Shown here: piece after piece, positions 15,001-27,465 of the stretch
Numbering within the stretch: the first letter of the stretch is position 1
Layout of the letters: the number at the start of each line of letters is the position of its first letter
NCBI GenBank assembly: GCA_964521295.1
Contig: CAZFRF010000001.1
Span: 850,066 to 914,065 of the forward strand
Direction: 5' to 3'
Source: an uncultured Gammaproteobacteria bacterium
GTDB lineage: Bacteria > Patescibacteriota > Microgenomatia > Levybacterales > UBA12049
DNA length: 64,000 bases
Notes under the pieces: generated by a model
Database searches by the model: none
What the model was told of the DNA's origin: nothing
The model's input: the letters and a program-made list of their open reading frames with translations, nothing else
Program-made: the position numbers and the translations under genes

Positions 15001-16582
15001 AGACAACATTTGATGTGCCTGCGGCTGTAGCAGTGATTGGAAGAAGTCCTTGTAATGTTTCAGAATTCGCTGCATAGCCGACAGTTGCAATTTGTTGCCT
15101 AGGAGTAAGCTCTCCTGTTGATTCAACGGTTACACCTAGGAACAAAGCTGCATTTTCTGCAAATAGAGTAGAGGGGATTGCACATTGTCCAGTTGCAATT
15201 GCGATTGGATTAGCGCAGGTTGGTCCACTACCAAGTAAGGTATTAAAAATACCATCTTGGTCTGGTGTTACTTTGTCTACTTCTTGCCAAAGTAAAATAC
15301 CTGCACCTGTTCCTGGAGTTTGTTGAGTGTAGATCGCAAATCTAAGATTGGTTAAAGAAGTAATAGGATTATCATTGTTATCTGTAAGTCTTCCTTGGAA
15401 GGAAAGGATTCTATTTGGTGAGGTTGGTAGGTTAGGAGCAGCTGTGATTTTAGATTGGTTTCCAAAGAAGGAATTATAAAAACCTAAAGATATGGCAACA
15501 ATAACGATAATAAATACTGCAAAGTGGAAATAGTGGGTAATTGCATATGAATGATATCTTTTGTACCAATTTGGTCTAGTAAATCTAGCGTGAAAAATAA
15601 TTCTTTGTAGAGGAGAAAGAGAACTAACGGCTATGGTTGAAGGTGCAAAAACCTTTTTAGAAATATTTCTTATACCCAATAAGTCTTTGTGGGTAATGTT
15701 TTTAATTTGAAATGTTTGGGGATTCTTGTGAAAAATTGGTTTTCCTTTGAGTGTCCAGGCTAAATCTTGTCCTTTTTTAGCAAAAGAAGCTAAAGGAAGT
15801 ATTAATGCAGCATCTAAAGCTAAGATTAATCCTTGGGATAGTTTCTGAGCAAGTCTTAAAGGAGGGAATCTGGAATATGTTTTAGTTTTAATTTCTGGTT
15901 GTGAAAATTCAGGAGTCTCAGGTATAAATAATTTTTGTTTTGCCTCATTTATATTTGTGAAATCTAATACTTTTTCAGTTAAGATGCCAGCTTCATCTGC
16001 CCAAGTTAGATATTTTCTCAAAGAAGATAGTTTTCTATTAACAGAGGCTGGCGAAAAGCCTTTGGAGCTACTTAATGCTGTCTTGTATTCTTCGATAAAT
16101 TCCTTGCTTATTCTGCCTGGTAATATTGAGTCTTCGAGTCCAGTGGCTTCCTTTGCCCAATTAATGAATTGTTTAACATCAATGATATAGTTTTTTATAG
16201 TAAGATGCGCTGCGTTAGTATCGAATAAGCTGCTTTTGAAATCCTTTAGCTTCCAATAGTCTTTTTCTTCTGGTTTATTTAAGGCTAAAGCTTCGAAAGG
16301 ATCAAAGGTTATTTGATTTTCGATCTTAAGGAATTTGAAGAATTTTCTAAGGGATGATAAGTGTCTTTGCATTGATGAAGCAGAGAAGACTGAGGAGTTG
16401 TCTTTTTTGTACTCTTCGAGTGTTTGGAAATTAACTTGGCCAGGAGTAAAGCTTGAGTTGTATTTCTGAGAAAACCAGTTAACGAAATGATTAATATCCG
16501 ATAAGTAGTTTTTTACAGTAACCTTTGAAGGCTGAACTTCTTGTGAAAATAAATAATTTTTAAAGCTTGTTAATAAATCCAT
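1..16582 (-). CDS. Giant cell-surface repeat protein of at least 5,527 codons; its 3' end lies beyond window position 1. Domain order: N-terminal 2x integrase-SAM-like (core-binding-like) repeats, one TM helix, then tail-fibre-like 'GNVGIGTTxP(D/T)xALEINS...NSGGDLTINPSG' repeat units, two CBM4_9-like jelly-roll modules, and Kelch-like blades.
   Basis: Manual reverse-complement translation from ATG (complement of 16580-16582; an in-frame stop lies just upstream at 16604-16606) stays open in one frame (codon first bases at positions congruent to 1 mod 3) all the way to position 1. The frame was spot-checked at 12002-12058 and at 1-10. The gene is absent from the ORF track because no stop lies inside the window. 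All listed ORFs in 1-16582 are short, antisense or out of frame. N-terminus: MDLLTSFKNYLFSQEV...RHLSSLRKFFKFL plus a second copy ...NRKLSSLRKYLTWA, then a hydrophobic helix HYFHFAVFIIVIVAISLGFY. Confidence 0.8.
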   Translation of the reverse strand, partial: MDLLTSFKNYLFSQEVQPSKVTVKNYLSDINHFVNWFSQKYNSSFTPGQVNFQTLEEYKKDNSSVFSASSMQRHLSSLRKFFKFLKIENQITFDPFEALALNKPEEKDYWKLKDFKSSLFDTNAAHLTIKNYIIDVKQFINWAKEATGLEDSILPGRISKEFIEEYKTALSSSKGFSPASVNRKLSSLRKYLTWADEAGILTEKVLDFTNINEAKQKLFIPETPEFSQPEIKTKTYSRFPPLRLAQKLSQGLILALDAALILPLASFAKKGQDLAWTLKGKPIFHKNPQTFQIKNITHKDLLGIRNISKKVFAPSTIAVSSLSPLQRIIFHARFTRPNWYKRYHSYAITHYFHFAVFIIVIVAISLGFYNSFFGNQSKITAAPNLPTSPNRILSFQGRLTDNNDNPITSLTNLRFAIYTQQTPGTGAGILLWQEVDKVTPDQDGIFNTLLGSGPTCANPIAIATGQCAIPSTLFAENAALFLGVTVESTGELTPRQQIATVGYAANSETLQGLLPITATAAGTSNVVLALDSSGNLTIGGSASPAFSASGGQFKLSGQPLLLTTNDSSNSNVVISPNGTGKIDVQKPLQNNTLSTNIRSAAGAFTAAGAVEVNDQFAILATSSGQSAFTVNQNSTGPVISASVSGAPVFTVDNGGNQTNSGDISVGGATGIVLSGTGADLRFSGSGNHDIYASAGTLQLGSATLIGTLTTSFTGNNRVLYADSATGALSAVTGSSGLCLVSGATTPTWGSCASGLPTDWWTTSSDGKALTPINSTMDFLLGGTATATAKFAVLGLNGTGPATATVAGNLIVMPKNGAGGNVGIGTTNPLARLQVNSTGDGTLFRLQRAGGSNLPIFQYNFTEATNIIEQEITGASAPTLTWKLGGSEQMRITPNGRLGIGTTSPTAILDVDGAASVGGQFTFRNGTAQIQSTANQQLTIGGNTTGNIILSPLNNSGYVGIGTTTPISLLSAFRDITDVANIGRSTTQNVGIGGTAGGNFLTSYSATNNAKSLIINATTDSSNTAPSAGTNGIVFQIRGGTSFAIDDNGDSRFYNDVTIDDTLTVGSTASIAGNLTLSGGARSIQTTTNNNLTLGGNTTGNIWLMPRNGAGTVYGDTAANGNLTLEGTSHATKTTSYLLLQPNGGNVGIGDSTPSKLFVVGNGDLFQVDSNGNALAPTLALGNGTIARTDRLFDINDSNSDINAKTYTGTVQRTITGTINANRTDYGLYNYVTTTASDDMFSHTAIAGYNVSQLNNGYTIDTSYGTQGYSLISSSTLSSFGNTATTSAGTYGIANLNAAGTVTSNMGIYGIAQNSNAGGTVTNNDGGRFISYATTDGATITTSRGIYAQSYENGDYASNGIVTGYGGYFDSQDADTTYGIWARGLQSSGLSETFTNTYGIWSQCQAASAGTTITNCYGITSLISASNATATITNAYGIHIQNPTSTGTIVNNHGLYIQDQTGGDTNDYGITIAGADTQVLWLSSGADNTDAANGIAFGASRDTNLYRSAADTLKTDDKLAIGTLNSGASNPLCYDGSNILSTCAAGALGTNWWTTSTDGKALTPINNTMDLLVGGNSTSSAQFAVLNIAGTLTPIASVSATAGSDATKGIYLSGNGSLQSVRNNTLTIGGSTTGNIALMPRNGNGNVGIGTSSPTEPLDISGSSTNPIYARVVNTSSGGSGFLVANSTGTNTGRFYWDNNNAKLVIGTITNNPVSFFLNNSEIARFDTSGNLGINTTTPTAKLDINGDASTSGSLVFNGSNKSIDILNGSRLDFQVSPGGDAGLTNAMTIAGNGNVGIGTTNPGTSKLNVQGGAMQQYLASGNNQGLWLHGGDTSNNYVRTENTTGNFDFGQGNNSAFITSANDPLSINVNGSTAMYFPSAGNVGIGTTGPDRALEINSATGVNLRLTYNDNNGSATNYADLVTNSGGDLSINPSGGDLITSGAFTSQNGNIYAGVNDTTGGLFHAYGNGTGSSEGGEVILYTAADYDTTVNAYNLDAYQDDFRIYQGSNTRLTITNTGLVGLGVGNTVPTSQLYVSRPLASGATGKALSIFDQIENQDIFTASASGTPVFTITRAGGISLGSNGLNYGTGSQCIAGGATASWVNCALGTNWWTTSTDGKALTPINNTMDLLVGGNSTSSAQFAVLNIAGTLTPIASVSATAGSDATKGIYLSGNGSLQSVRNNTLTIGGSTTGNINLSPSNGSGFVNISGGLGASGIIAGKNILPYQYASWETGVDGTNIPSARNVNVTSVTISTADAYDGTRSVAVSTNGSATDGYAYLNGTSSTSYNIPIKPSTKYAFSVYSKLSAGTTCSVEMYVRESDGTHRSAGGTADTSSWTRLSNTFTSNSGSTAVIIRVDANCASTTALFDGFMLEEIPTSQTYASAWSSNGNFGIRMDQNNLLGLDGSASVSGNLVLEGASRSIQSYDQNTLTIGGSTTGNITLLPNNGTGGLINNNGYIAANGNTTITGSPLTVGTNLGWKVGLWSNSFALGIANSTLAVKTGTWLSIFGSSNPANNATNSTPDTNSNINFNATTGDASISGSLVFQSASNQTIDILNGSRLDFQTSPGGDAGLTNAMTIAGNGRVGIGTTNPTAKFQVTGTSGAGGTGDFITNLQGGSVTESDLYILNSRDVNTGVGYAAKVIGVNVQNAVGAANEVYLRSNNGGITSAGAIYLGADDVNQGVFGVLGTPISSAPGTALTHLLTVKGNGNVGIGTTAPDRALEINSATGNNLRLTYNDNNGSATNYADLTTNSGGDLTINPSGSNVVIGSGNYLSVGGTTQVGQITGITSATNPSNGIDTFALTASGSYGGGIGLADGTGNFGIWTDTTGTVARFGFGTSLGALTSYMSLTNAGALTIADDFRVNGNDILDSAGTSRLTLGATTTLTNTGLTFSGTTGITASSLTSMTTGAAFTLNGTSYVRVGDTATPGTATGDDDLFVEGDLEVDGVLYTDGGIDTALTPGSVVFAGTSGVLSQDNASLFYDDTNDSLGIGTAAPGSTTRLSVAKTWGSATATEQFGIYSTINYSAADTGLKQNLRLNTGATHTTGTQANLIGLLSLVTGAGNGGTTTNAYGLWSRIDSATGHTVTNGINYGINNGTVTGTLTNQMGIQVGGLTTGTNNAGILIGEATGTNQSNLVIGSTSIPTGTYSIYNSSTDQNYFAGNVGISTTGPLTKLHVAGGSTTPAGELGSSLITGSTTAMRLAMGVDNTSTMYSWIQSVENGSTQRALSLNPIGGNVGIGTTAPDRALEINSSGGTNLRLTYNDSNGSATNYADLTTNSGGDLTIDPSGGQVVLNNTGDSSLATALSGALILGDTAGDNITMDGNEIMARTAGTTASTLFLNAEGGLVSVGAGGLTSTGTLTANGTLDANGIFTLGDGGETGAITTSDWAIDTTGNITNIGNISNTANASQPYLVLDSVGTGDDWTAQGAYISIGEGGALGSASMHITYTGNGYGYTGAGTVTSGIPAGGYWRYTYNTQNIYTPGSVQIGSNLDVDGNLNVTGLTYAANDFAVASHSAIPAPYNNTNMLANPSFETFAGGLGIADNWNSAGTGTRGRIANQSANHDGAWGLYLTNTGSDTQSQNISSYKIPVSPSTGYTASTWAKVDTACGDGFYLRVIWYDQWGNYLSYNDIYSNSGAVTTSWDNYSGQVTSAANAYHAAVQIYNHNPTNACTLYIDQVSLRASLIDADIAVNGDLLVGSLSETISQAGFSLTGDDLFVTDSIGAEGWIYSDTGLDISDNGKAAGTSMLKIGDDTFLTDVDVANTLGIYSSSDTTRGSIKLGSAGPTLAGTSALLTLTGALNVSSNLDVDGTSNDIAGTLNLSGNTLTSSGDLTIDAAGGGVKIGTGTPGIVDLAGDDLYVTGDLEVAGTTYLGSIDTSLTPGSVVFAGTSGVLSQDNTNFFWDDSANKLGIGDSTPDAKLTLGNNVATGFLDTFAEYQILLYSDATAGNSYGLGVKGSTMVFNTYDAYSWDRRGTTTSMTLDASSNLAVTGNIDAIGGTYNSANNVLSDTDATQPRLVLDSLSTGDNWTSQGAYISLGESGALGSAAMHITYTGDGYGYTGAGTVTSGIPAGGYWRYLYNNQQIYTPSSVDVTNNLTLTQPSATTNTLYGLKNSVGTDKGWFGIIGTAGAYITGSSQYDVFVRSQQNLWFAANAAGTADMMIESSTGKVGIGTTSPEVALDIEKATGNTFGKFGSSFPLYTVASNPTVGFNAYYNSGWKFGQGSTAHYGGEINVSPSTGTMSFNISNAAGAADGAITMQNMLTILQNGNIGVGTTAPDRALEINSSGGTNLRLTYNDSNGSATNYADLTTNSGGDLTINPSGGDISITSDRINFNTTGVAAPTFTNYSSGVKIVLYNDLSGSAAGYTLGIESGTMFSTVSTTGQQFKWYGGTTTAMTLSGAGALTLVGNLAVNGDNITTDGSLTISPTTTLTLNSTGDMTLDSSGDIILDAAGDDVIFKDNGTTYATITNGATNTTFTPLSDGLFVNGSLGVGIAPSSIYRTYFYNQGTDATSKSTSRVLLQNICTSVACSGQYLALDAAAENHSASTQNTTGSLIAIGGTIGNSDTGTVAGVRGLSLTLSGNSGTITNTYGVYIGDLTAGTQTNTPYSIYSSDAGTYNYFAGEVGVGTASPNGIGGGGIMEIVNNDASTNTALTVLNLTRSSTGTAADGIGARLEFNLEDDGSTIREAATINALLTDSSNGSIDSALTFNTRYNQSAFREVLRLTGNSLVGLGTTNPTSELYVTRALSAGTTGKSLTILDQIENQDIFAASSSGTSRFVITNAGKVGINNPLPSGYLSIKAVGAGAPTLVEGYDTTTGTNKAFTLNTDSNGNGSLDLYITGSKKVHLVAWGGDSSYILDSDFGLGTTTPKAKLDVAGSASISGNLAYSGGTNNFSNYVLNGSKLNFMVSPGGTEGNGDIGDGFSTANQSQLPQALNDTFGSITSASVNGTTYIYSLGGQNSGGTSLSTVYKSRVDATFGNAGTFSSTANALPGIRWGGGATTATIGSSTYVYLIGGSSGSVQSTAYYATLSNSDGNPGTFATTSPILATRLEPAVTTATVGGTTYIYAMGGFNSTAVNTNPTSTVYKATVNSNGTLGTFSTTSPLLANRGGGGAVSATIGSSTYVYYVGGGDSQGRSTVYKAAVNPSNGTLGTFSSVTGLPMNRQEGGTEIVTLNDKTYIYSIGSGDNNAVTSSNAVYKTALDSSGNPGTWSSSGQSQLPQNVAYIGTTLVTVNGNSYIFAVGGSGESAASLSTVYRAGIGNVALTIANNGYVGIGTSNPGAQLAITWGPDVSLSNAGTFIIGDTGGQNVGFDNNELQARLNGTTSKLWLNNNGGEVGIGAGGLDVEGNIQLDIQNVSGTFAFCHGTNGAQADSNINDCNGSATDIAEYYPGTEDMEPGDLVSLVASSDARFKYQVVKPTTPYDQNLIGVVSTIPTGPNGDVLGDSTIPEDHYPQAIGLAGRVVVKVSLENGPIRTNDYLTSSSVPGVAMKATKSSRVVGRAIEDYDGTVQVSSGSRDQERY
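3603..3750. repeat. Copy of a ~140-bp near-identical coding repeat (the module encoding ...NSGGDLTINPSGG...LRLTYNDNNGSATNYADL...)
   Basis: Visual alignment with 6711-6858 gives roughly 95% identity. It is more distantly similar to 8297-8435 and 10785-10920. Confidence 0.6.
6711..6858. repeat. Copy of the same ~140-bp coding repeat
   Basis: Contains 'atctccacctgagttggtagttaaatctgcatagtttgtagcagatccattactatc' as in 3603-3750. Confidence 0.6.
8297..8435. repeat. Copy of the same ~140-bp coding repeat, sub-family B
   Basis: Contains 'aaatctccgcctgaattagtagttaaatctgcatagttagttgcagaaccattgttatcattgtatgt', nearly identical to 10785-10920. Confidence 0.6.
10021..10261. repeat. Intragenic 240-bp perfect direct repeat, copy 1 (inside the giant gene)
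   Basis: Read directly: 'caatggttaaggtattgtttctaacagattgcaatg...catcagtagaggttgtccaccagttagtgcc' is identical at 10021-10261 and 11701-11941. The offset is 1680 bp, which is 560 codons, so the copies are in frame. Confidence 0.9.
10785..10920. repeat. Copy of the same ~140-bp coding repeat, sub-family B
   Basis: See 8297-8435. Confidence 0.6.
11701..11941. repeat. Intragenic 240-bp perfect direct repeat, copy 2
   Basis: Identical to 10021-10261. The 20 bp flanking upstream already diverge at a few positions. Confidence 0.9.
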
Positions 16583-17114: not shown

Positions 17115-18014
17115 ATGAAGACTCTGCCCAGAATTGTACTTATTTTTTCTTTTCTTCTTTTGTTCTTAGCAAAGGGAAGCTCAGTTTTTGCTCAACAAGC
17201 AGTTCCTTTGGTTGCCCCAAGGCCAGGAGCATCCTCAACAACAGTATCGGGGACAATAGGAAATTATTACATTACTCTTAAGGGTTATATTGCTCCTTTT
17301 GCTTCCATAGTTTTATACGGATCTGATGGTGCTTTTCTAAAAGCAGTTGTTACAGACTCAAAAGGATATTTTACAGTCACAGATTTATTAGTTAAGAAAG
17401 GTTTTTCTAAGGTTTGTTTTGATGCAATTGACTTTAAAAGACTAGGTGAATCATATTCTTGTCTTACTTTTTCGCCTATTGAGGGACCACGAACAATTGA
17501 TGGTATTTTTCTACCACCAACCCTTGGTTTATCTAGATCAGAGATAGCAGCTGGTTCCTCAGCTATTGCTTGGGGTTATTCTATGCCATATGCAATTGTA
17601 ACTGTGCACGTTGGTAATGTTGTCTATTCAACTACTGCAGATTCTAATGGATATTATCAAATTGAGCTTAAAAACGTAAAAGCTGGAGTATATTCTTTAT
17701 ACTCAACTGCGGAATTAAATGCAAAACCTTCGCTAGATCCTCAAAAAAGAGTACAGCTAAAAGCTTTGTCATGGTGGGAGCAGTTTATTGCTTGGATAAT
17801 GCAGCTTCTTAAAAAGATTTGGGTATTCTTAACTTCATTTACCATAACACCGTTTTGGATTGCTATACCAGTCTTTATCCTCATTATTATACTAATTTTA
17901 AAGATCTGGCCTGAGAAATTTACCATTCTTTATCACAATAGATTAGTAATCTTTTTTACCAAACTCTTTAGAAGACATAAGCCTCTTCATCACGAATACT
18001 TCATGGGTTATTAA
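17115..18014 (+). CDS. Secreted, C-terminally membrane-anchored protein with two carboxypeptidase-regulatory-like / Ig-like beta-sandwich segments
   Basis: N-terminal signal peptide MKTLPRIVLIFSFLLLFLAKGSSVFA. C-terminal TM IPVFILIIILILKIW. Motifs 'TVHVGNVVYSTTADSNGYYQIELKNVKAGVYSLYST' and 'IVLYGSDGAFLKAVVTDSKGYFTV' fit CarboxypepD_reg-like patterns. Confidence 0.55.
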   Translation: MKTLPRIVLIFSFLLLFLAKGSSVFAQQAVPLVAPRPGASSTTVSGTIGNYYITLKGYIAPFASIVLYGSDGAFLKAVVTDSKGYFTVTDLLVKKGFSKVCFDAIDFKRLGESYSCLTFSPIEGPRTIDGIFLPPTLGLSRSEIAAGSSAIAWGYSMPYAIVTVHVGNVVYSTTADSNGYYQIELKNVKAGVYSLYSTAELNAKPSLDPQKRVQLKALSWWEQFIAWIMQLLKKIWVFLTSFTITPFWIAIPVFILIIILILKIWPEKFTILYHNRLVIFFTKLFRRHKPLHHEYFMGY

Positions 18015-18029
18015 TTTAAACTTACTGTT

Positions 18030-19478
18030 TTAGAAATTTGCAGTTGCTACGTAGGTAAAGGTTGTCGAGTAGATTCCAGCTGGTGCAGTAGGTGAGATTG
18101 TTGCTCCATACTCAACGCTAGTTATGCTTACCGCTGAAGGTACGCTAGTTGACGCTAGTAGGCCATGAAAACCACTTATGCCTAAATTCCAAGGATTAGC
18201 ATATTTGTTGCTTGCGCCTCCTCCAGAACCCCAGCCTGTTGGTATTGTTGGACTAGTTGTGCTTCCGGAGCCTATACAAGGATGAATGCCAAAAGCATTA
18301 GTACCAGGAGTTATCGCTGCTGGAGCAGGATTTGTGCCATTAGTTGAGTCGTTTCCAGCTAGCCCTAGTCCGTTATTACCAGTATTGGCATCGGGCAAGA
18401 AGATTCCACTGCCTGGGTTAATAAAATGGCCTGAGGAAGTGGCTGTTAGGGTATATCCATATGAGGCGTTGGTATCAATTTGAATGTTTTGAGCGGAAAC
18501 ATTTCTTTTTCCGCTAGTAAGGCTTCCTAAATTAACAAATGTGGCTGTTGAATCAAGTCCAGGTCCAGGATTAGTAGTATCACCACAGATACTAGCACCG
18601 TTTGCTATTCCCGAAATGGTCATTGTCATATATGGTTCAATAGTGCCTTGAATTTGTACAGATTCAATAATTCCAGCAATTGCAGTTGTCGTATCTTGAT
18701 CTACCCCAGAATTATCTTGAGTTTTAACCACAATTTTCCATTGATCTGCAGTACCTGAAATATTGCTACTCTTAATCGGGTTAATAAGCATAGGTTTAAA
18801 AGAAGTACAGACTCCGCTAGAATTTGTTAAGCAGCCAACCTCAACCGTAACTGTAGCTCCGGCGCTAATACCAGAACCGTTTAAGGTGCAATCCATTGTT
18901 GAGCCGCTAATATTCCAGCTTGAGCAGGTAGCGTTATCGGTTTGGATTTCTGAGGAAGAGATGTTATTAAAGGAAAAGCCTGTTGCAGAGGGTGAAGCAG
19001 AGTTGCTGCCTGAGCCTGGAAAAGTTAAAACAATATGGCCTCCGCCTACAACTGAAGCTGATGTTGTAAATTTGATAGTGTGAGTCGCAGTAATTGGGGT
19101 AATTAAAGTTTCACCAGCTGTATGTGCTGTTGTGGTGCTGCCAGTAAAAAAGACAATTCTTTGATTAGAAGATGGGGTATTGGCGGCTGACATCGAAGCA
19201 ACATTTAGTCTATCTGTAGGATTGCCTAGGTTATTTAAGAATCTGGCAGAATCTGATGATATCCATAATGCCGAATTATACCCACTAATTGGTAAGTCAG
19301 TAACAATTACTTGGCCAACCCCGGAAGATATTCCTGTGGCTACTGGAGCCGCTGCAGAGGGCCTAGAAGTAGATAATTGAACGGAAACGTTAGTAAGTGC
19401 AGCATTGGTTTTAGGAGCAAAAAATAAGCCTAAGGAAAGGAGAAGAATAATAACAGACAGTATTTTTTTTATACTCAT
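18030..19478 (-). CDS. Secreted Ser/Thr/Gly/Asn-rich surface protein with a C-terminal WxL-like (YxL/YxA variant) domain; paralog of 20613..22055
   Basis: Signal peptide MSIKKILSVIILLLSLGLFFAPKTNA. Shares long blocks with the 480-aa paralog (LSTSRPSAAAP...NVASMSAANTPS...). 'IQIDTNASYGYTLTATSSG' and the C-terminus '...PAGIYSTTFTYVATANF' resemble the two WxL-domain motifs, with Tyr or Phe in place of Trp. Confidence 0.55.
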   Translation of the reverse strand: MSIKKILSVIILLLSLGLFFAPKTNAALTNVSVQLSTSRPSAAAPVATGISSGVGQVIVTDLPISGYNSALWISSDSARFLNNLGNPTDRLNVASMSAANTPSSNQRIVFFTGSTTTAHTAGETLITPITATHTIKFTTSASVVGGGHIVLTFPGSGSNSASPSATGFSFNNISSSEIQTDNATCSSWNISGSTMDCTLNGSGISAGATVTVEVGCLTNSSGVCTSFKPMLINPIKSSNISGTADQWKIVVKTQDNSGVDQDTTTAIAGIIESVQIQGTIEPYMTMTISGIANGASICGDTTNPGPGLDSTATFVNLGSLTSGKRNVSAQNIQIDTNASYGYTLTATSSGHFINPGSGIFLPDANTGNNGLGLAGNDSTNGTNPAPAAITPGTNAFGIHPCIGSGSTTSPTIPTGWGSGGGASNKYANPWNLGISGFHGLLASTSVPSAVSITSVEYGATISPTAPAGIYSTTFTYVATANF

Positions 19479-19569
19479 GTAAATAAAATAAGTGCTACTA
19501 TTACTATCTGATTTTTAAAATCAATTGTCAAGGTTTTTTGGGCTTAATTTAGATTCAAAACTGAAGATT

Positions 19570-20559
19570 TTAAGCAGTTGTTGTATTTCCGCCCTCATCA
19601 TGACTTACCTGAGGCTGATTTACTTGATGATCAGGGTTTTTGCGCTGATTTTTTCTCTTTTTGTAATATTTTGCCCCTAGGATTACCGCTATTACGATAA
19701 GAATAATTATTATCGTAAGTCTCCAAGGGAAAACCCAGAATGTTAAAGAAGAAACGAGTGGGAGATTGCCATTTTGTCCATATGAGGCAGTTAGTTGAGC
19801 TTTATATGGTCCAAACATTAACATGCTACCAAATCTATTTGTAAAATCCCTGGTGGCTTCTGGGAAAATGTTGTGAGTTGGTAGATTTTGTGACTCATTA
19901 AAGAAAAGACCCGTTACTTTAACAGTTCCTTTTGGTGCGATATGCAGATCTCCTAAGTTTCTAATTTGCGTTAAGACGTCAACTGGTCCATATTCATGTA
20001 AAAAGTTAGTAAAGAATTTAAATACTGAAGCTGATTCTTTAACTGGTCCATTGATTGTGACATAAAAAAGGGAACCTATTTGAGTATTTACCACACCACC
20101 GGTTGCATTATCTACGCCTTCAACTCTTGGTTTGGTAACAATTGCTGCGTAGTGTCCACCTGGTTTAGCATAGGATGGGATTTGAACATAATAGTTTACA
20201 ACCTGAGTTTGACCTGGTTTTAGAGTAAATTGAGAAGGTGAGACTCCAATCCAGGCTGCAGCAGAATATTTATTACTTAAGGAGTTGGGAGGAAGTATTT
20301 GAGGTGTGCCTTGGGTATCTGAAACGATATAGTCTTGAACGCTGATATCAAAAGTTAATGGGGCATTGCTTTGGTTTACCACCTTAGTTGTGCCTTGTTT
20401 GTATCCTCCTGGATCAAGTTTTACGTCAATTGTAGGATTAACAACCGTAAATGTTCTTTGTAGCTCTTGAGCAGTAGCAACGCTAATTACGCTAAACACA
20501 AAAACTAACGTTGTAGCTATCAATAATCTTTTCTTTAATTGTAAATTGGGCAGTTTCAT
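19570..20559 (-). CDS. Signal-peptide protein with a C-terminal TM anchor and a basic tail (DUF916/CscA-like topology); paralog of 22135..23145
   Basis: N-terminal signal MKLPNLQLKKRLLIATTLVFVFSVISVATAQE. C-terminal 'LTIIIILIVIAVILGAKYYKKRKNQRK'. The 'TFTVVNPTIDVKLDPGG...VVNQSNAPLTFDISVQDY' block resembles DUF916-type surface proteins of WxL loci. Confidence 0.5.
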   Translation of the reverse strand: MKLPNLQLKKRLLIATTLVFVFSVISVATAQELQRTFTVVNPTIDVKLDPGGYKQGTTKVVNQSNAPLTFDISVQDYIVSDTQGTPQILPPNSLSNKYSAAAWIGVSPSQFTLKPGQTQVVNYYVQIPSYAKPGGHYAAIVTKPRVEGVDNATGGVVNTQIGSLFYVTINGPVKESASVFKFFTNFLHEYGPVDVLTQIRNLGDLHIAPKGTVKVTGLFFNESQNLPTHNIFPEATRDFTNRFGSMLMFGPYKAQLTASYGQNGNLPLVSSLTFWVFPWRLTIIIILIVIAVILGAKYYKKRKNQRKNPDHQVNQPQVSHDEGGNTTTA

Positions 20560-20612
20560 ATTTTTTAACTAATTTACATTATGAGCATTTTATTTTAAGG
20601 TTGTCAATTGCC

Positions 20613-22055
20613 TTAAAATCTTGCTGTTGCTACATATGTAAAGACTGTCGTATAAATACCTGCTGGCGTAGTTGCTGAGACTGCTGCTGCATATTCAATT
20701 GTGGTTATGCTGGCTGCAGAAGGAGCGCTTGTGCTTGATAAGAGAGCGTAATATCCATTGGTTTGATTATTCCAAGGATTAGCATAGTTATTGCTTCCTC
20801 CGCCTCCAGAGCCCCAGCCAGTTGGTATGGTTGGCGCAGGAGAACCGCTAGTTGCACAAGGGTGTATACCAAAGTCTGAAACACCTGCTGTAATTGCGGC
20901 TGGTGAAGGAGTAGTACCGTTAGTTGCGTTATTAGCAGTTAAACCATTGCCTCCGTTTGCGTCAGCCAGATAAAAACCAGTTGATGGGTTAACAAATCTA
21001 CCAGCTGAGGTTGCTGTTAGGGTATATCCAAAAGAACCATTGGTATCAATTTGAATTGTTTGAGCTGATCTGTTAATTTGTCCGCTGGAAAGTGAACCTA
21101 GGTTAACAAAGGTTGCTGTTGAATCAAGACCTGCGCCAGGATTAGTTGTGTCTCCGCAGGCACTTGCTCCATTAGTTACTCCAGCAATGGTCATGGTCAT
21201 ATATGGCTCAACTGTTCCTTGGACCTGTACAGATTCTATTATTCCCGCTACAACGGTTGCGCTGTCTAAATCAACTGAGCTAGCGTCTTGAGTTTTGATG
21301 CCAATTTTCCATTGATCAGCGCTTCCTACTGCCTGGGTTGTTTTCACCGGATTAATAAGTCTAGGGTTAAAGACTGTGCAAACTCCAGATGATTGAGTCG
21401 TACAACCAACTAAAAGCGTAACAGTAGTGTTGGCTGCTACTCCTGAAGCATTTAAATTACAGGTAATAGAGTTTGCGCCGATTGTGTATGAAGAGCAGGT
21501 TGCATTATTAGCTTGAATTTGTCCTGAGGCAAGGTTGTTAAATGAAAAGCCAGTTGCTGAGGGAGATGCAATGTTGCTTCCAGCCCCAGGGAAGGTAATT
21601 ACAATTTTTCCGCTTCCAGGTATTGCAGTAACAGTTGTAAATTTAATAGTATGTGTTGCTGTGATTGGAGTAATTACAGTTTCTCCGGAAAAATGTTGGG
21701 CTGCAGTGTTAGCAGTAAAAAAGAGAGTTCTTTGGTTTGCAGATGGGGTATTAGCGGCTGACATAGAGGCAACGTTAATAGATTCACTTGGTGTGCCATT
21801 GTTTCTTAAGAAAGTTGCACTATCTGATGCAAGCCAGAGAGCTGAATTATATGCGCTTCCTGCTAGATCAATAACCGTTACTTGTCCTACGCCTGAAGCA
21901 AAACCTGCTGTTAATGGTGCTGCAGCAGAGGGTCTGGAGGTGCTTAGCTGATCAGAGGCATTCGAGAGGGAAGCTGCTTGAGTTTTAGATGTAAATACCA
22001 ATCCCGATAACAGGATTAATAATACTATAATATTTAGCCTCAATAAGTATTTCAT
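20613..22055 (-). CDS. Secreted surface protein with a WxL-like C-terminal domain; paralog of 18030..19478
   Basis: Signal peptide MKYLLRLNIIVLLILLSGLVFTSKTQA. 'IQIDTNGSFGYTLTATSAG'. C-terminus '...PAGIYTTVFTYVATARF'. Co-linear with the 482-aa paralog. Confidence 0.55.
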   Translation of the reverse strand: MKYLLRLNIIVLLILLSGLVFTSKTQAASLSNASDQLSTSRPSAAAPLTAGFASGVGQVTVIDLAGSAYNSALWLASDSATFLRNNGTPSESINVASMSAANTPSANQRTLFFTANTAAQHFSGETVITPITATHTIKFTTVTAIPGSGKIVITFPGAGSNIASPSATGFSFNNLASGQIQANNATCSSYTIGANSITCNLNASGVAANTTVTLLVGCTTQSSGVCTVFNPRLINPVKTTQAVGSADQWKIGIKTQDASSVDLDSATVVAGIIESVQVQGTVEPYMTMTIAGVTNGASACGDTTNPGAGLDSTATFVNLGSLSSGQINRSAQTIQIDTNGSFGYTLTATSAGRFVNPSTGFYLADANGGNGLTANNATNGTTPSPAAITAGVSDFGIHPCATSGSPAPTIPTGWGSGGGGSNNYANPWNNQTNGYYALLSSTSAPSAASITTIEYAAAVSATTPAGIYTTVFTYVATARF

Positions 22056-22134
22056 TTAAATAAATGCTACTATTAATATGTATGGTTTTTGCGTATAAGT
22101 CAAGTGGTAATCTGAGGGATAAGTATACCTTGGT

Positions 22135-23145
22135 TTAGTTAGTATATTTTTTAACTCTTAAGAGTATAAAGACGAGTATAATTATTAATAAAACTATACC
22201 TATTAAGTAGTTGATGGGGAAGGCAAAGAAGGTTATAGTTTTGGAAAGTGTTTGTGATTTATCATCAAGATTAATAGTAAGTGTGGCTGTGTATGGTCCA
22301 AGTAAAAATTTTTCAGGCCAGATAGCTACGGGAATATTTTCTTCCTCTAGTAATGCATTAGCTGCTGCGTATTCCTTTGAATCTGGGTTTTGTTGTTTTA
22401 AATCAGGAATAAGTCTTTCTGAGTTAGAAAGGATATTAACTGGTAGTAAGTCAATTCTGCCAATTGTTTGATTAAACATGTTTTTAATAACTATCTTTCC
22501 TTGTGGAGTAATAAAATGGTCACTTTTATTAACTACGTTAACGGTAAAGGGTACTGGGCCACTATCTTTAAAAAATGCAGTCTCAAATTCCTTAATGTAT
22601 CCATTTGTTGCGCCTTTTGGTCCGACAGTAAGTAAGACATTCATTGCAATTGCTGCTGTAGCTAAAGAAGAATTAGCTAGGTTGGTGTTGTTATTTTTTG
22701 ATACAAAAAGAATACTAAAGTAATAGTCTCCTTTTTCTTCGTTCGCCGGAACCTGAAGGACAAGTTGTAGCTTTTTGCCTTGCTTAGGAGCTAGGGTAAT
22801 ACTTTTCACAGCTTCGCCCTCATCTAGGATTTTAATTCTATTCGCAAATAGAGGGTCTGGAAAAGCGGAAAAAGTATCTTGAATTTGTAGTTGACCGTCT
22901 TTACTTTGAGCCGGAGCAAAGGGCTTAATAACTATATTTAAATCTACACTCGAATCAGTATTGTTTTCCAAGAAGATATCGCCTTTAGGCTCAGCAGGAG
23001 GTGTGGAGTCGATCTGCATAATTGGAGGATATATGCCTAAAGACACTTCTTGGGCCATGATGTTTTTTACAAGACCAATATTTGAAGCTAAAATTAGCAG
23101 TATTAATATCCAAGTGCTAAGTATAATTATTTTTTTTAGTATCAT
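22135..23145 (-). CDS. Signal-peptide protein with a C-terminal TM anchor (DUF916/CscA-like topology); paralog of 19570..20559
   Basis: N-terminal hydrophobic signal. C-terminal 'LIGIVLLIIILVFILLRVKKYTN'. Same size class and layout as the 329-aa protein. Confidence 0.5.
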   Translation of the reverse strand: MILKKIIILSTWILILLILASNIGLVKNIMAQEVSLGIYPPIMQIDSTPPAEPKGDIFLENNTDSSVDLNIVIKPFAPAQSKDGQLQIQDTFSAFPDPLFANRIKILDEGEAVKSITLAPKQGKKLQLVLQVPANEEKGDYYFSILFVSKNNNTNLANSSLATAAIAMNVLLTVGPKGATNGYIKEFETAFFKDSGPVPFTVNVVNKSDHFITPQGKIVIKNMFNQTIGRIDLLPVNILSNSERLIPDLKQQNPDSKEYAAANALLEEENIPVAIWPEKFLLGPYTATLTINLDDKSQTLSKTITFFAFPINYLIGIVLLIIILVFILLRVKKYTN

Positions 23146-23150
23146 ATTTT

Positions 23151-23900
23151 TTAAAATGTCGGAAACGCGATATAGTTTACTACATTTGTATATAGTCCGG
23201 CGGGTTGGGTTCCTGGAATATTTACCTTATATGTTATCTGAGTTTGTCTATTTTTGCCAACATTTGGACTACTCATAACCAGAACTGCAGAAGGAGAAGC
23301 AGCGAATTGCTTATAAAAAGTTGCGGTTGAGAAGCCAGAGGCACAATCAGTTCCGCTTAAGTTGTCGCATCTATAGCCAAACCCGTATGCAAGTGAGCTT
23401 GTCCAGGCAGCGGCTGTGGTTGTTGTGCAGCTGCCTGCATCGCAGGTAGTTGGTTGGATTTCTGCTCCAGTTGCGTTCACTCTTAGGTTGCGGTTGTTGT
23501 TTACATAGACTCCATAGCCATGACCTGATTCAAAAGATACGGTTAGAGTATTGGTTCTGGTTGTAGGGCTAGTGGGAACGATTACGCCAAAGTTAATAAA
23601 GGTGCTAGAGATAGTAAAAGTAAAGGGAGTAAGGGGGTGAATATATTGAAAACCTGCTTTTACTTTATAATTAGTGCCTGTGAAAAGAAATTGACCGGAT
23701 TCACCGCTAGTTATTGATAATTTATAATTACTTCCGGTTGGTTTACCCGCGAAAGAGTTAAGATTACCCATCTGGATTATATAAGAAGAATTAGACATTG
23801 TTTGAGCAAGGGATTTTGATACAGAAAGTACTAGAAATGTAATAGACAGATATATTATTAGGGTTGCAAATAGGAAGTTTTGCAGCGAATTATTTTTCAT
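23151..23900 (-). CDS. Small secreted protein consisting essentially of one WxL-like domain; it corresponds to the C-terminal half of the ~480-aa paralogs
   Basis: Signal peptide. 'FTFTISSTFINFG...LTVSFESGHGYGVYV' aligns with 'YMTMTISGIANGAS...IQIDTNASYGYTLTA' of the larger proteins. C-terminus '...QPAGLYTNVVNYIAFPTF'. Confidence 0.5.
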   Translation of the reverse strand: MKNNSLQNFLFATLIIYLSITFLVLSVSKSLAQTMSNSSYIIQMGNLNSFAGKPTGSNYKLSITSGESGQFLFTGTNYKVKAGFQYIHPLTPFTFTISSTFINFGVIVPTSPTTRTNTLTVSFESGHGYGVYVNNNRNLRVNATGAEIQPTTCDAGSCTTTTAAAWTSSLAYGFGYRCDNLSGTDCASGFSTATFYKQFAASPSAVLVMSSPNVGKNRQTQITYKVNIPGTQPAGLYTNVVNYIAFPTF

Positions 23901-23902
23901 AT

Positions 23903-24538
23903 TTAACTTTTAATTTCAGAGCGAAGATCATCTGCTTCTTCAAGTATCTCATTTAGCTTTTCCATATCTTTATCCTTAAGATTTCCATGTTCGTTATCTA
24001 AGATTTCTTCTACATCTTCTGCGATTGTGTCTGCAGCTTCCTTTTCACGTTCTTTTAACTGTAACATTTCTTCGTTTTGAAGGTCATTTTTTTGATATTC
24101 CTTGCCAAAAAAGTAGGCAAGGGGAGAAAGTAGGGCAACTGAGCCTAGTTTTAGGGAATTCATGGCTAAATCTGACTTTAAAATATCTGGCACAAAGATC
24201 AGTAGAGTGCCAATTATGAATACAAATACTAATGTTGGTTCAAAAACAAAGGCTATACCGAAGGCTAGAAAGTAGAGAATGAAAAAAAGTGGACTATTTA
24301 ACCCACCAGTTGTAAAGATTAGGAGAAAAATAAGGCTATTTAACAAAAATATTCCCATTGGACTTTCTCCACCCATGGTTAAAAAGCCTCTTCCTTTTTT
24401 TCTGGCTGAAATAATCAGGTACAAAGCTATAAAAAGTCCAAGCATTTGAACTGTGAAATCTTTAAGTGGACTATTTTGCCAAATAAAGATAACTGCAAAA
24501 GAGGCAATCAGAGTTAAAAATTGGGTCAGGCTCTTCAT
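23903..24538 (-). CDS. Polytopic membrane protein with a C-terminal acidic coiled-coil tail; first gene of the surface-protein operon
   Basis: About four hydrophobic helices, then 'LQNEEMLQLKEREKEAADTIAEDVEEILDNEHGNLKDKDMEKLNEILEEADDLRSEIKS'. Separated by 2 bp from the next gene. Confidence 0.5.
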   Translation of the reverse strand: MKSLTQFLTLIASFAVIFIWQNSPLKDFTVQMLGLFIALYLIISARKKGRGFLTMGGESPMGIFLLNSLIFLLIFTTGGLNSPLFFILYFLAFGIAFVFEPTLVFVFIIGTLLIFVPDILKSDLAMNSLKLGSVALLSPLAYFFGKEYQKNDLQNEEMLQLKEREKEAADTIAEDVEEILDNEHGNLKDKDMEKLNEILEEADDLRSEIKS

Positions 24539-24592: not shown

Positions 24593-26851
24593 ATGAAATT
24601 AGGTAAATATTTTCCTGATAAAATCGAGTCTAAGTGGCAAAAAGAGTGGCAAAAAGCTGGTATTTTTAAGTTTAAAGAAGATGCCAAATCAAAGGGCAAA
24701 TATTACAATCTAGTTGAGTTACCATATCCCTCAGGCGATCTTCATTTGGGACATTGGTTTGCATTTGTTCCTGCAGATGCGCACGCAAGATATAAAAAGA
24801 TGTCAGGTTTTAATGTTTTATTTCCTAATGGTTTTGATGCATTTGGTCTTCCAGCCGAAAACGCAGCTATAAAACGAAATATTCATCCTCAGGATTGGAC
24901 GATGAAAAATATTGAGACCATGCGTGATCAATTTGCGACAATGGGAACTATGATTGATTGGACACATACCGCAATTACTTGTCTTCCTGAGTATTATCGT
25001 TGGAATCAATGGATGTTTCTAAAAATGTTTGAAAAAGGTATTGCCTATAAAGGAAAAGCACTATCAAACTGGTGCCCAACAGATCAAACAGTACTTGCTA
25101 ATGAGCATATTGAAAATGGAAAGTGCTGGAGATGTGGTACAGAGGTTATCCAAAAAGAAGTAGAGCAGTGGTTTTTAGCAATTACTAAATACGCCGATTC
25201 TTTAATCTGGCCAGAAAATCCTAAAGAGGATTGGCCAAAAATGGTTAGAGATGGACAAAACAATTGGATAGGAAGATCAGAGGGGATGCTCATTGATTTT
25301 GGTGGTATTGAAGTTTTCACAACCAGACCCGATACGATTGATGGTGCAACATTTTTAGTCGTAGCTCCTGAACATTCCTTTGCAAGTTCAATTGATTTGC
25401 CTGAAGTTAAGGAATATATAGAAGTGGCTAAGAAGAAAACTGAGATGGAAAGAAAGGAAGAAAAGGTGAAGTCAGGGGTGTTTACTGGACGCTCTGTGAA
25501 AAATCCCTACACAGGTAAAGATATTCCGGTTTGGATCTCAGATTATGTTTTAGCAGGTTATGGTACAGGAGCAATTATGGCAGTTCCATTCGCTGATGAG
25601 AGAGATAAGGAGTTTGCTACTAAGTTTAATCTTCCAATTATTCCTACAGATTATAAATCAAAGCCAGAAGGTAAGAAAATGGTTAATTATCATCTAAGAG
25701 ATTGGTCAGTTTCAAGGCAAAGATATTGGGGAACTCCTGTGCCAATTATTCATTGTGAAAAATGTGGTTTAGTTCCAGTGCCTTTAGAGGACTTGCCAGT
25801 AGAGCTACCATATAATGTAGATTATGCGCCTAAGGGTAAGCCACCTTTGGCAACAGATGAAAAATGGTTAGCGGTTAAATGTCCAAATTGCCAAGGCGAG
25901 GCGAAAAGAGAAGCAGAAACTTTAGATACTTTTTTTGATAGCGCCTGGTATTACTATAGATATGTAACTCCAAAGTTTGACAAAGCTCCTTTTGATTCTG
26001 ATTTGGTAAATAAAATTATGCCAGTCGATGTATATTTTGGGGGATCCGAGCATACATTGGGTCATACTTTATATGCAAGATTTTTCACAAAATTTTTTAA
26101 AGATCTAGGTCTTGTTGATTTTTCAGAGTTTGCTAAAAAAAGAGCACAACATGGGGTGATCCTAGGACCTGATGGTAACAGGATGAGTAAGAGTAAAGGA
26201 AATGTCGTTAATCCTGATGACGTTGTTTCTGAGTTTGGAGCAGACACGGTCAGGCTTTATCTCTGTTTTATGATGCCATATGAGGCAACTGCTCCTTGGA
26301 ATAAAGAAGCGATTTCGGGAATTTATAGATTTATTAAAAGAGTTTGGGAGTTAGCAGAGGTTGTGGAAGAAGGGGAATTAACTAGAGAAGATAAATTTCA
26401 AATGAATAAAGCCATAAAAAAAGTAGGCGATGATCTAGAGATGTTACAGTTTAATACAGCAGTATCTAGTTTAATGATCTGGTTGAATTACTTAGCCGCC
26501 AAAGACAAGGTCTATAAGGAGGAATATCTTAATTTATTAAAGCTACTCTCTCCATTTGCACCTCATGTAGCAGAGGAGATTTGGCATTTAATTAATCCAT
26601 CTGCTAGCTTTATTCATTTAGAGAATTGGCCGTCATATCAATCTGAATACTTAATTGCAGATTCAGTGAAAATTGTAGTTCAGATCAACGGAAAGGTTAG
26701 GGACTTAGTTGAAGTAGAGAGTTCTAAATTAAAGGATCAGGGATATGTAGAAAATTTAGCTAAAGAGGCTAATAATGTGAAAACATATTTAAATAGCCCT
26801 GTGAAAAAAGTGATTTACGTTGAAGGTAAAATAATAAATTTTGTTGTGTAA
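24593..26851 (+). CDS. leuS: Leucyl-tRNA synthetase (short form, 752 aa)
   Basis: Class I HIGH motif 'PYPSGDLHLGHWFAF'. KMSKS motif 'RMSKSKGN'. LeuS-typical N-terminus '...IESKWQKEW'. Confidence 0.95.
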   Translation: MKLGKYFPDKIESKWQKEWQKAGIFKFKEDAKSKGKYYNLVELPYPSGDLHLGHWFAFVPADAHARYKKMSGFNVLFPNGFDAFGLPAENAAIKRNIHPQDWTMKNIETMRDQFATMGTMIDWTHTAITCLPEYYRWNQWMFLKMFEKGIAYKGKALSNWCPTDQTVLANEHIENGKCWRCGTEVIQKEVEQWFLAITKYADSLIWPENPKEDWPKMVRDGQNNWIGRSEGMLIDFGGIEVFTTRPDTIDGATFLVVAPEHSFASSIDLPEVKEYIEVAKKKTEMERKEEKVKSGVFTGRSVKNPYTGKDIPVWISDYVLAGYGTGAIMAVPFADERDKEFATKFNLPIIPTDYKSKPEGKKMVNYHLRDWSVSRQRYWGTPVPIIHCEKCGLVPVPLEDLPVELPYNVDYAPKGKPPLATDEKWLAVKCPNCQGEAKREAETLDTFFDSAWYYYRYVTPKFDKAPFDSDLVNKIMPVDVYFGGSEHTLGHTLYARFFTKFFKDLGLVDFSEFAKKRAQHGVILGPDGNRMSKSKGNVVNPDDVVSEFGADTVRLYLCFMMPYEATAPWNKEAISGIYRFIKRVWELAEVVEEGELTREDKFQMNKAIKKVGDDLEMLQFNTAVSSLMIWLNYLAAKDKVYKEEYLNLLKLLSPFAPHVAEEIWHLINPSASFIHLENWPSYQSEYLIADSVKIVVQINGKVRDLVEVESSKLKDQGYVENLAKEANNVKTYLNSPVKKVIYVEGKIINFVV

Positions 26852-27465
26852 TGGATAATTTCTCTGGTTTTGTCCTCGAGCTTTGCAAAAAGCACTGGCT
26901 TCCTTTGTCCCTCGGAGTATTAGGTTTGATATTCTTAATATATGGTTTGATAGGGTTATTTAATGCAAGTTCTCGATCTGATCAGATTAAGTTTGAGACT
27001 AATTCAGTAAATGATTCAAGTTTATCTGAAAAGTTAGTTTATGTGGACATAGAAGGCGAGGTCGTAAAGCCAGGTGTATATAAGTTAAAGCAAGACTCAA
27101 TTGTTCAAGATGTTTTTGTTGCTTCTGGTGGATTAACAGCTAGTGCAGATAGGGAGTGGGTAGCAAAAAATGTTAACTTAGCGCTTAAGGTTTCTGACGG
27201 ACAGAAAATATATATACCTAAAGTTGGTGAAGATGGTAAGACTATGTCGACTAGTGTCTTGTCTGGTTCGACAGCTAATTCTGGTCTTATAAATATTAAC
27301 ACTGCTTCGGAAAAAGAATTAGATAGTTTACCCGGAATAGGTCTGGTAACTGCAGCAAAGATTATTAATTTGAGACCATATGCCGCCATAGAGGATTTAG
27401 AAATAAATAAAATAGTTAGTTCTAAAGTGTATTTACAGATAAAAGATAAAATTGCCGTTTGGTAA
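26851..27465 (+). CDS. comEA: ComEA-like DNA receptor (TM anchor, SLBB domain, helix-hairpin-helix)
   Basis: C-terminal HhH 'NINTASEKELDSLPGIGLVTAAKIINLRP'. SLBB-like 'VYVDIEGEVVKPGVYKL...VSDGQKIYIP'. Its start overlaps the leuS stop (taATG). Confidence 0.85.
   Translation: MDNFSGFVLELCKKHWLPLSLGVLGLIFLIYGLIGLFNASSRSDQIKFETNSVNDSSLSEKLVYVDIEGEVVKPGVYKLKQDSIVQDVFVASGGLTASADREWVAKNVNLALKVSDGQKIYIPKVGEDGKTMSTSVLSGSTANSGLININTASEKELDSLPGIGLVTAAKIINLRPYAAIEDLEINKIVSSKVYLQIKDKIAVW

Follow-up and report, generated by a model that had tools for sequence, protein, structure and literature searches.

We examined a locus at positions 17115 to 24538 of a 64,000-nucleotide stretch of contig CAZFRF010000001.1 (assembly GCA_964521295.1), hereafter referred to as the window, in whose numbering all coordinates are given. 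This locus of six minus-strand genes and one convergent plus-strand gene comes from a Levyibacteriota (Microgenomates, candidate phyla radiation [CPR]) bacterium and is most probably a Pam-type pilus operon. Pam filaments of the CPR bacterium Candidatus Mycosynbacter amalyticus were solved by cryo-electron microscopy (cryo-EM) (bioRxiv 10.64898/2026.03.03.709456). PamA and PamB are two-domain pilins whose inter-domain strand is donated to the open, truncated immunoglobulin (Ig)-like C-terminal domain (CTD) of the neighboring subunit. The pam operon encodes the pilins PamA, PamB, and PamE, the single-domain tip PamT, and the FimC/PapD-like chaperones PamC and PamD, which carry a C-terminal transmembrane (TM) helix. 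PamR, an RbmA-like TM protein with two FnIII domains, was proposed as the anchor, and the system operates without an usher. Homologues were reported from Saccharimonadia and, by language-model search, from Microgenomatia, with approximately 21% identity for a PamA homologue (10.64898/2026.03.03.709456). The window matches this published parts list one for one. An earlier note on the stretch had proposed a WxL-like complex that would be a new surface-display system. The claim of novelty had to be dropped, as the secreted proteins match NCBIfam models of Pam pilins, components of a pilus whose assembly by donor-strand exchange was already described in 2026. The locus is a further, Microgenomates-type example of this already known pilus.

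Secreted subunits and the candidate donor strand

All seven open reading frames (ORFs) listed in the earlier note were recovered (Table 1), and the topology that it had given for the TM-anchored proteins, a signal peptide combined with a C-terminal TM segment and a basic tail, holds. An N-terminal hydrophobic, signal-like segment is present on each of the six proteins other than the 211-amino-acid (aa) membrane protein, that is, on those of 249, 336, 480, 329, 482, and 299 aa. Single C-terminal TM segments are located at residues 311 to 329 of the 336-aa protein, at residues 276 to 294 of the 329-aa protein, where KKRKNQRK follows, and at residues 244 to 262 of the 299-aa protein. The 249-aa protein contains four cysteines and the 480-aa protein six.

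The three secreted proteins of 480, 482, and 249 aa belong to the Pam pilin family. The NCBIfam model NF058581 (CPR_Pam_pilin_C, "Pam pilus system pilin subunit") matched their C-terminal approximately 150 aa over the whole model length, with E values of 1.6e-8 for the 480-aa protein (residues 314 to 480), 7.9e-7 for the 482-aa protein, and 1.4e-6 for the 249-aa protein (residues 98 to 249). The same model matched 49 of 54 close homologues (best E value, 6.6e-10) and 82 of 92 members of the broader family (best E value, 3e-15). A second model, NF058579 (CPR_pilus_PamT), matched 29 of the 92 broader members, most of them approximately 240 to 260 aa in length (best E value, 3e-14). When a profile of the CTD alone was used as the query in an exhaustive search, 1,115 representative clusters were retrieved at an E value of ≤1e-3. 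The match ended at the final residue in 84 of the 98 proteins that were checked; proteins bearing the domain are approximately 240, 390, 480, or 700 and more aa long, and the domain is strictly C-terminal in them. No family was returned by a Pfam scan of the three secreted window proteins.

The 249-aa protein aligns with the CTDs of the pilins and can be described as a CTD-like domain preceded by an N-terminal extension of about 45 aa. This extension (residues ~33 to 80; SSYIIQMGNLNS...SNYKLSITSG...TNYKVKAGF) lies ahead of the part that aligns with the CTD, in contrast to PamT, which is described as being without a linker strand. Conceivably, the extension could form a self-complementing hairpin. 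Among the family members, four proteins, P0251 (726 aa), P0306 (545 aa), P0288 (769 aa), and P0262 (791 aa), appear to be fusion proteins in which a whole WxLIP-like chaperone precedes a Pam pilin domain at the C terminus. Their chaperone part, residues ~3 to 324, matched the hidden Markov model (HMM) of the 336-aa family with E values of 1e-111 to 1e-121. These fusions could be real or could reflect gene-calling read-through.

An AlphaFold2 (AF2) model of the 480-aa pilin, with a predicted local distance difference test (pLDDT) score of 83.1, is all-beta and consists of two domains joined by residues 272 to 285. The linker sequence SVQVQGTVEP within this segment ranks with the best-conserved 10-mers in the family (0.83), with V276, Q277, V278, Q279, and P284 being nearly invariant. 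Yet it is here that the monomer model is least confident, with pLDDT falling below 50 at residues 276 to 282. A linker that is conserved yet not confidently placed in the monomer is what would be expected of a strand whose partner sits in another subunit.

Gene content, topology, family membership, synteny, and the behavior of the linker are direct results of the present analysis. By homology to the M. amalyticus cryo-EM work, a sequence of assembly steps can be proposed, covering filament formation, donor-strand exchange, subunit order, anchoring, and function. All components would be exported by Sec. The 336- and 329-aa membrane-tethered, PapD-like chaperones would capture the incomplete Ig-like CTD of each subunit, and the strand they donate would come from the long hairpin at the end of domain 1. 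Polymerization would proceed by donor-strand exchange, with the linker SVQVQGTVEP of one pilin filling the groove in the CTD of its neighbor. The fiber would be started at its tip by the 249-aa single-domain protein, its shaft would be formed by the 480- and 482-aa pilins, and the convergent 299-aa Ig-Ig-TM protein would end it and tether it to the membrane. Neither an usher nor an outer-membrane pore would take part. The likely function of such a structure is that of a long, thin adhesive filament for contact with a host or partner.

Membrane-anchored proteins and the WxL domain

WxL/csc clusters of Lactobacillales and Bacillales encode a small and a large WxL protein, WxLIP (DUF916-DUF3324-TM), and CscD (PMC1534035, PMC10599100). 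The composition of the window cluster corresponds to the published definition of a WxL cluster (PMC10599100), with one small (249 aa) and two large (480 and 482 aa) secreted proteins and two WxLIP-like genes within 6.5 kb. The assignment of the TM-anchored proteins to CscA/DUF916, made in the earlier note on topology, was borne out by family-wide searches. PF06030 (DUF916, now WxLIP_PGBD) was the top Pfam family for both window chaperones, although below threshold, with E values of 0.0049 for the 329-aa protein and 0.022 for the 336-aa protein. It was found in 37 of 54 members of the 329-aa family (best E value, 1.3e-5) and in 59 of 62 members of the 336-aa family (best E value, 5.8e-10), was by far the most frequent Pfam family among the homologues of both chaperones, and was already present as a precomputed annotation on most orthologues of the 336-aa protein.

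For a direct comparison, 68 Firmicute loci were collected by means of the back-translated WxLIP signature NQIDKxxxYFDLK, and 55 WxLIPs were extracted together with their WxL neighbors. Alignment of family profiles with hhalign gave a probability of 96.7% and an E value of 4.3e-10 for the 329-aa family against the 55 WxLIPs, over 269 columns that span both domains and the TM segment, and 95.6% with an E value of 1.1e-8 for the 336-aa family; all cross-controls remained at or below 15%. By plain hmmsearch, the Firmicute WxLIP HMM matched the last of three paralogues in a more distant Pam-type locus (L075, see below) at an E value of 5e-9. Because these independent lines agree (PF06030, hhalign, the WxLIP HMM match in L075, and the composition of the cluster), the sequence comparisons identify both TM-anchored proteins as true homologues of Firmicute WxLIP/CscA, a relationship that goes beyond shared topology.

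The AF2 model of the 329-aa protein (pLDDT, 81.2) shows two beta-sandwich domains and a TM helix at residues 279 to 306. The hairpin that closes domain 1, with a disordered tip at residues 149 to 156, we take to be analogous to the F1-G1 hairpin of PapD-type chaperones. A PDB sequence search with the pilin and with the chaperone yielded nothing usable, a profile of the 336-aa family did not match 9i1y among PDB sequences, and no Pam chaperone model was matched in the NCBIfam scan. Of the three families that the earlier note had named for profile searches, DUF916/WxLIP was matched in Pfam, WxL (PF13731) was not, and the DUF3324 model was absent from the Pfam result lists of the window proteins and of both chaperone families. 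That note had also set a chaperone-usher-like fold and similarity to WxL or DUF916 against each other as alternatives, yet the two go together here, the fold of WxLIP itself being PapD-like.

The motifs on which the WxL comparison had been founded are present in the secreted proteins. DTNGSFGYTLTA is located at residue 337 of the 480-aa pilin, DTNASYGYTLTA at residue 335 of the 482-aa pilin, and the looser version SFESGHGYGVYV in the 249-aa protein. The C termini read PAGIYTTVFTYVATARF, PAGIYSTTFTYVATANF, and PAGLYTNVVNYIAFPTF and follow the pattern PAG(I/L)Y.....Y(V/I)A...F. The motifs recur family-wide and are not due to chance, since G343/Y344, P464, G466, Y468, Y474, and F480 vary little or not at all across 54 homologues. 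At both positions of the WxL motifs that hold Trp, the locus has Tyr. One CPR pilin homologue was observed to carry Trp at the Tyr of the first motif (...TNGGSWVITATSSG...). Conversely placed variants were seen among Firmicute ORFs (bg63 and bg170), where Phe replaces the second Trp of one WxL protein (...LTFELIDSPA) and another has a Pam-like TTPAGTYT directly before the second WxL motif.

Whether these proteins are WxL domains with Trp replaced by Tyr, as the earlier note had it, received a divided answer. At an E value of ≤1, the Pfam WxL model (PF13731) matched none of the 54 close homologues and none of the 92 broader members, and it was not returned for the window proteins. The motif pairs, on the other hand, align in register. 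In a prespecified hhalign comparison between the broad CTD profile and a set of 66 WxL domains, de-replicated and delimited by HMM, the local score was 24.5 to 25.0 (P = 0.003 to 0.004) over 46 to 48 columns, at a probability of just 8 to 10%. This score was reached by none of 100 block-shuffled nulls (mean, 17.0; standard deviation, 1.9; maximum, 23.3) and by none of 100 column-shuffled nulls (mean, 10.1), and the reversed alignment scored 10.5. An earlier hhalign run of the CTD against a crude WxL alignment had given P values of 0.12 and 0.059, and global mode was uninformative. The aligned stretch corresponds to pilin residues ~310 to 358, where F.NLG pairs with.DFG and Q.L.V.TN..GY.ITA...G.F pairs with vqV.D.RG..GW.L.vk....F. 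A greedier alignment places PAG.Y...TY.A onto Y..tLTW.L.D.P, which is the second motif pair of the earlier note.

Independent HMM searches pointed in the same direction. When the Pam-CTD HMM was run against the ORFs of the Firmicute loci, 20 of the 25 top de-replicated matches were WxL proteins, compared with a base rate of 23% (Mann-Whitney P = 1e-9; area under the curve, 0.76). The three best "background" matches turned out to be WxL proteins overlooked by the regular expression, one of which ends in ...DTTPAGTYTNKLTWNMTEE, compared with ...TTPAGIYTTVFTYVATARF in the window. Real WxL domains scored above their reversed (paired P = 2.7e-5) and shuffled (P = 1.7e-8) versions, and in the reciprocal search with a WxL HMM, Pam CTDs scored above reversed sequences (P = 9e-4); these sequence-level P values overstate the case, as family members are not independent. 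Counting raw hmmsearch matches to WxL sequences did not by itself settle the matter, because a shuffled version scored as high as 12.6 bits and the sequences are related to each other; the count was replaced by the de-replicated rank tests and the reversed, shuffled, and column-permutation nulls. A sequence search of the PDB turned up no WxL structure. With the homology of the partner proteins taken into account, these comparisons suggest that the Pam CTD and the WxL domain are probably homologous.

Gene order and surroundings

The features of the locus are compiled in Table 1. From the 211-aa gene to the convergent gene, successive genes are separated by 2, 5, 79, 53, 91, and 15 nucleotides. 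A scan of the locus for promoters and terminators performed no better than on shuffled sequences, and the 211-aa membrane protein matched no Pfam or NCBIfam family in the scans of window proteins.

Table 1. Genes and protein segments of the candidate pilus locus
Feature	Positions	Strand	Remarks
Polytopic membrane protein, 211 aa	23903-24538	-	First gene of the operon; ~4 hydrophobic segments/TM; acidic C-terminal tail
Secreted single-domain subunit, 249 aa	23151-23900	-	PamT-like, putative tip; counterpart of "small WxL"; NF058581 E value, 1.4e-6
Membrane-anchored putative chaperone, 336 aa	22135-23145	-	DUF916/WxLIP family, PamC/D-like
Two-domain pilin, 480 aa	20613-22055	-	PamA-like: beta-sandwich N-terminal domain, conserved linker, C-terminal Pam pilin domain
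Linker SVQVQGTVEP, residues 275-284 of the 480-aa pilin	21204-21233	-	Candidate donor strand
C-terminal domain, residues 286-480 of the 480-aa pilin	20616-21200	-	Motifs F.NLG, GY.LTA, PAG.Y..TYVAT..F
Membrane-anchored putative chaperone, 329 aa	19570-20559	-	WxLIP/PapD-like; second, divergent paralogue
Second pilin, 482 aa	18030-19478	-	Lineage-specific extra copy
Convergent gene, 299 aa	17115-18014	+	Signal peptide, two Ig-like domains, C-terminal TM, conserved cytoplasmic tail; candidate PamR-like anchor

The named homologues belong to Candidatus Levybacteria, Levyibacteriota, or the Patescibacteria group, which fall within the Microgenomates group of the CPR, and the non-Firmicute background proposed for the locus is confirmed. 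Its gene order is kept in three relatives (L071, L072, and L073). Common to them are a divergent LeuRS gene followed by genes for a ~210-aa membrane protein, a ~248-aa small secreted protein, a ~335-aa TM-anchored protein, a ~475-aa pilin, a ~337-aa TM-anchored protein, a convergent ~300- to 330-aa Big/CarboxypepD_reg TM protein, and a giant Phage_int_SAM-headed protein. Each of the three relatives has one pilin gene and none at the position of the 482-aa pilin, and both genes for TM-anchored proteins are kept.

The earlier note had counted two copies of a gene pair, a TM-anchored and a secreted protein, in the locus. This was not supported. The 336- and 329-aa proteins share 21% identity, although they are clearly homologous by hhalign of their families (100%; E value, 1.8e-46), whereas the 482- and 480-aa pilins are 66% identical (63% in the N-terminal domain and 70% in the linker and CTD). 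Since the relatives have a single pilin together with both chaperones, and these share only 21% identity, the comparison shows that the window holds an ancestral arrangement with one extra pilin copy, the 482-aa protein. A tandem duplication of the pair was ruled out, both chaperones being ancestral. The slot between the second chaperone and the convergent gene is variable: it holds the extra pilin in the window, an 86-aa 23S_rRNA_IVP-like gene in L072 (12517-12777), and a 135-aa gene plus a Fic protein in L073 (12449-14012). A more distant Pam-type layout was observed in locus L075 (1220-5363; GCA_964460255.1), where three paralogous TM-anchored chaperones (361, 298, and 318 aa) come after a PamB-sized pilin of 368 aa.

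The convergent plus-strand gene, which had been suggested as a possible member of the locus, has a counterpart in the same convergent position in all three relatives, and the N-terminal mature strand and the tail PLHH.YFMGY are conserved. In Pfam, its product reached E values of 2.4e-7 for CarboxypepD_reg and 1.2e-5 for Big_6, both just under the cutoff. Judged by its architecture, this Ig-Ig-TM protein would probably act as the terminator of the fiber and its membrane anchor.

A sortase had also been pointed out as lying near the locus. The gene is real (41516-42265; PF04203; E value, 1.4e-18), but it is 17 kb away, and no C-terminal LPXTG sorting signal was found in any protein of the locus. 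Involvement of the sortase was therefore ruled out. At 0.6 kb from it lies a gene for a DsbA-like thioredoxin (40146-40901; PF13462; E value, 3e-29), with an unannotated 137-aa ORF (40953-41366) in between. One may speculate that the DsbA-like protein might act on the Cys pairs conserved in the pilins.

Upstream of the operon and divergent from it, positions 24593 to 29537 hold LeuRS (752 aa), then ComEA-like, ComEC-like, and metallo-beta-lactamase-fold genes. This block is syntenic with L071 and L073, and these genes were assigned solely through synteny with the annotated relatives. On the other side, a giant minus-strand ORF (2-16582) of at least 5,534 aa runs past the left edge of the window. 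It begins with two N-terminal Phage_int_SAM domains (PF02899; E value, 5e-20) and a hydrophobic segment, which are followed by a G/T/S/N-rich, fiber-like body. Its GC content is ~0.40, compared with ~0.32 to 0.37 for most of the window past ~16 kb. In L071 and L072, too, a giant gene of this kind comes after the pilus locus, with a product of at least 3,901 aa in L072. The window ORF may correspond to the "tail fibre-like protein" that is reported in the Pam preprint to colocalize with pam operons.

Competing readings and known systems

Several points weigh against identification of the locus as a Pam-type pilus operon. The NF058581 scores of the window proteins, 28 to 35 bits, lie below the NCBI curated cutoff of 55 bits, and the 249-aa protein of the window has no NF058579 PamT match at an E value of ≤1. 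Fold matches of the 480-aa pilin model in the PDB are generic Ig-like only, and no Pam entry was found there by sequence and fold searches with the pilin. The candidate anchor of 299 aa is encoded on the opposite strand, matches CarboxypepD_reg/Big, and showed no RbmA-like (FnIII) Pfam match, and the accessible account of the published pam operon (10.64898/2026.03.03.709456) contains no mention of the 211-aa membrane protein. The likeness to PamA/B/C/D/T/R of M. amalyticus was assessed through family models and published descriptions. Finally, filaments have not been observed in any Levyibacteriota organism.

The strongest competitor is a WxL/csc-type complex, in which WxL-like domains would not polymerize but would sit noncovalently on peptidoglycan, held by the WxLIP-like protein and displaying adhesive N-terminal domains. 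The homology of the TM-anchored proteins to WxLIP, a parts list that equals the WxL cluster definition, and the weak but collinear and bidirectional similarity between the Pam CTD and the WxL domain all speak for it. We nevertheless consider such a complex unlikely. Pfam WxL was found in 0 of 146 family members scanned, and the Pam pilin models match instead, models of a family whose members have been seen as filaments by cryo-EM. The conserved linker, not confidently placed in the monomer model, favors strand donation between subunits, and the locus has no CscD-like LPXTG protein. The two readings are not fully exclusive, as a WxL system may itself use strand complementation.

That the locus encodes unrelated secreted beta-sandwich proteins, such as S-layer-like proteins or generic adhesins, whose similarities arise from convergent beta-strand patterns, would agree with the generic Ig-like PDB matches of the pilin model, with NF058581 scores under the curated cutoff, and with the low HH probability for WxL. 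Coincidence of this kind is highly improbable given the tightly conserved gene order, the presence of the same CTD in three genes of the operon, and the significant and consistent family-wide matches to Pam models and to DUF916/WxLIP. A classical chaperone-usher operon of the Pap/Fim type from a diderm bacterium is effectively refuted. The locus has no usher-sized beta-barrel gene, and no usher family appeared in the Pfam and NCBIfam scans of its proteins. PapD_N, PapD_C, and Fimbrial were not matched in Pfam at an E value of ≤1, either by the window proteins or by the family members; similarity exists at the fold level only. Moreover, the chaperones are membrane anchored and have WxLIP, not a chaperone-usher chaperone, as their best match, the pilins have two domains, and all homologues that were found are from the CPR.

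Because the chaperones of the Pam-type system are homologues of WxLIP, an evolutionary relationship connects this system with the WxL/csc clusters. For the chaperones, this kinship is essentially shown by profile comparison, and for the pilin domain it is only suggestive. We lean toward the view that a single ancient donor-strand system of monoderms, usher-less and chaperone-assisted, has Pam pili and WxL/csc clusters as its two branches. PamC/D would then be the counterpart of WxLIP/CscA, PamT that of the small WxL protein, and the Pam pilin CTD, with Tyr in place of Trp, that of the WxL domain. In an AF2 prediction, a hairpin strand of WxLIP completes the WxL beta-sandwich (PMC10599100); that paper uses neither the word "chaperone" nor "PapD." Such completion is donor-strand complementation of the chaperone type. 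Neither the link between Pam and WxL nor any paper tying WxL to donor-strand mechanisms was found in the literature searched, and WxL and DUF916 are never mentioned in the Pam preprint (10.64898/2026.03.03.709456). There, the system is called CPR exclusive and distinct from any characterized filament system.

If the kinship is true, Pam is not exclusive to the CPR, WxLIP is not mainly a binder of peptidoglycan or host but a chaperone tethered to the membrane, and Firmicute WxL proteins may be assembled, and perhaps polymerized, by strand complementation. WxL/csc clusters have been known since 2006 from enterococci, listeriae, and lactobacilli and have been tied to adhesion and virulence, but their assembly logic is still unclear. 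What the analysis adds is the homology of Pam-locus chaperones with WxLIP, which joins two systems so far treated as unrelated and suggests that they form one family of monoderm surface-assembly systems. It provides both fields with a concrete, directly testable hypothesis and offers Pam pili an origin among monoderm bacteria.

Compared with chaperone-usher pili (Pap/Fim, CFA/I, Saf, and Csu), the locus lacks an usher and an outer membrane, its chaperones are TM tethered, and its two-domain pilins carry the candidate donor strand internally rather than at the N terminus; PapD/Fimbrial similarity is absent at the level of Pfam. With WxL clusters, it shares a homologous membrane-anchored WxLIP of two Ig domains, a small single-domain protein alongside a large one with the same domain at its extreme C terminus, and a monoderm envelope, and the strand completion predicted for WxLIP is the act proposed for Pam chaperones. 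The motifs F..G, Q.xxD/T.xG..G(W/Y).L, and Y.T..T(W/Y) are collinear in both. The locus domain ends in ...TYVAT..F-COOH, whereas WxL domains end in ...TW.L.D.P; Tyr stands for Trp in both motifs, and the Pfam WxL model is silent. Unlike WxL clusters, the locus belongs to a different phylum, has two WxLIP paralogues per cluster, and has no LPXTG CscD partner. WxL proteins are described as peptidoglycan bound and not as filaments, unlike Pam.

From Pam of M. amalyticus, the locus differs in several respects. The match is remote, and there is one major pilin type, duplicated here, instead of distinct PamA and PamB. The operon opens with a conserved 211-aa membrane protein, and the candidate anchor is convergent and Big/CarboxypepD_reg-like. 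Its neighbors are LeuRS/ComEA/ComEC and a giant surface protein and not, as for Pam, ATP synthase. The likeness between the two systems extends to a CPR host, two-domain pilins, a small single-domain subunit, two divergent TM-tethered PapD-like chaperones, an Ig-Ig-TM protein, and the lack of an usher. Like PamA and PamB, the window pilins combine paired cysteines with a conserved inter-domain linker.

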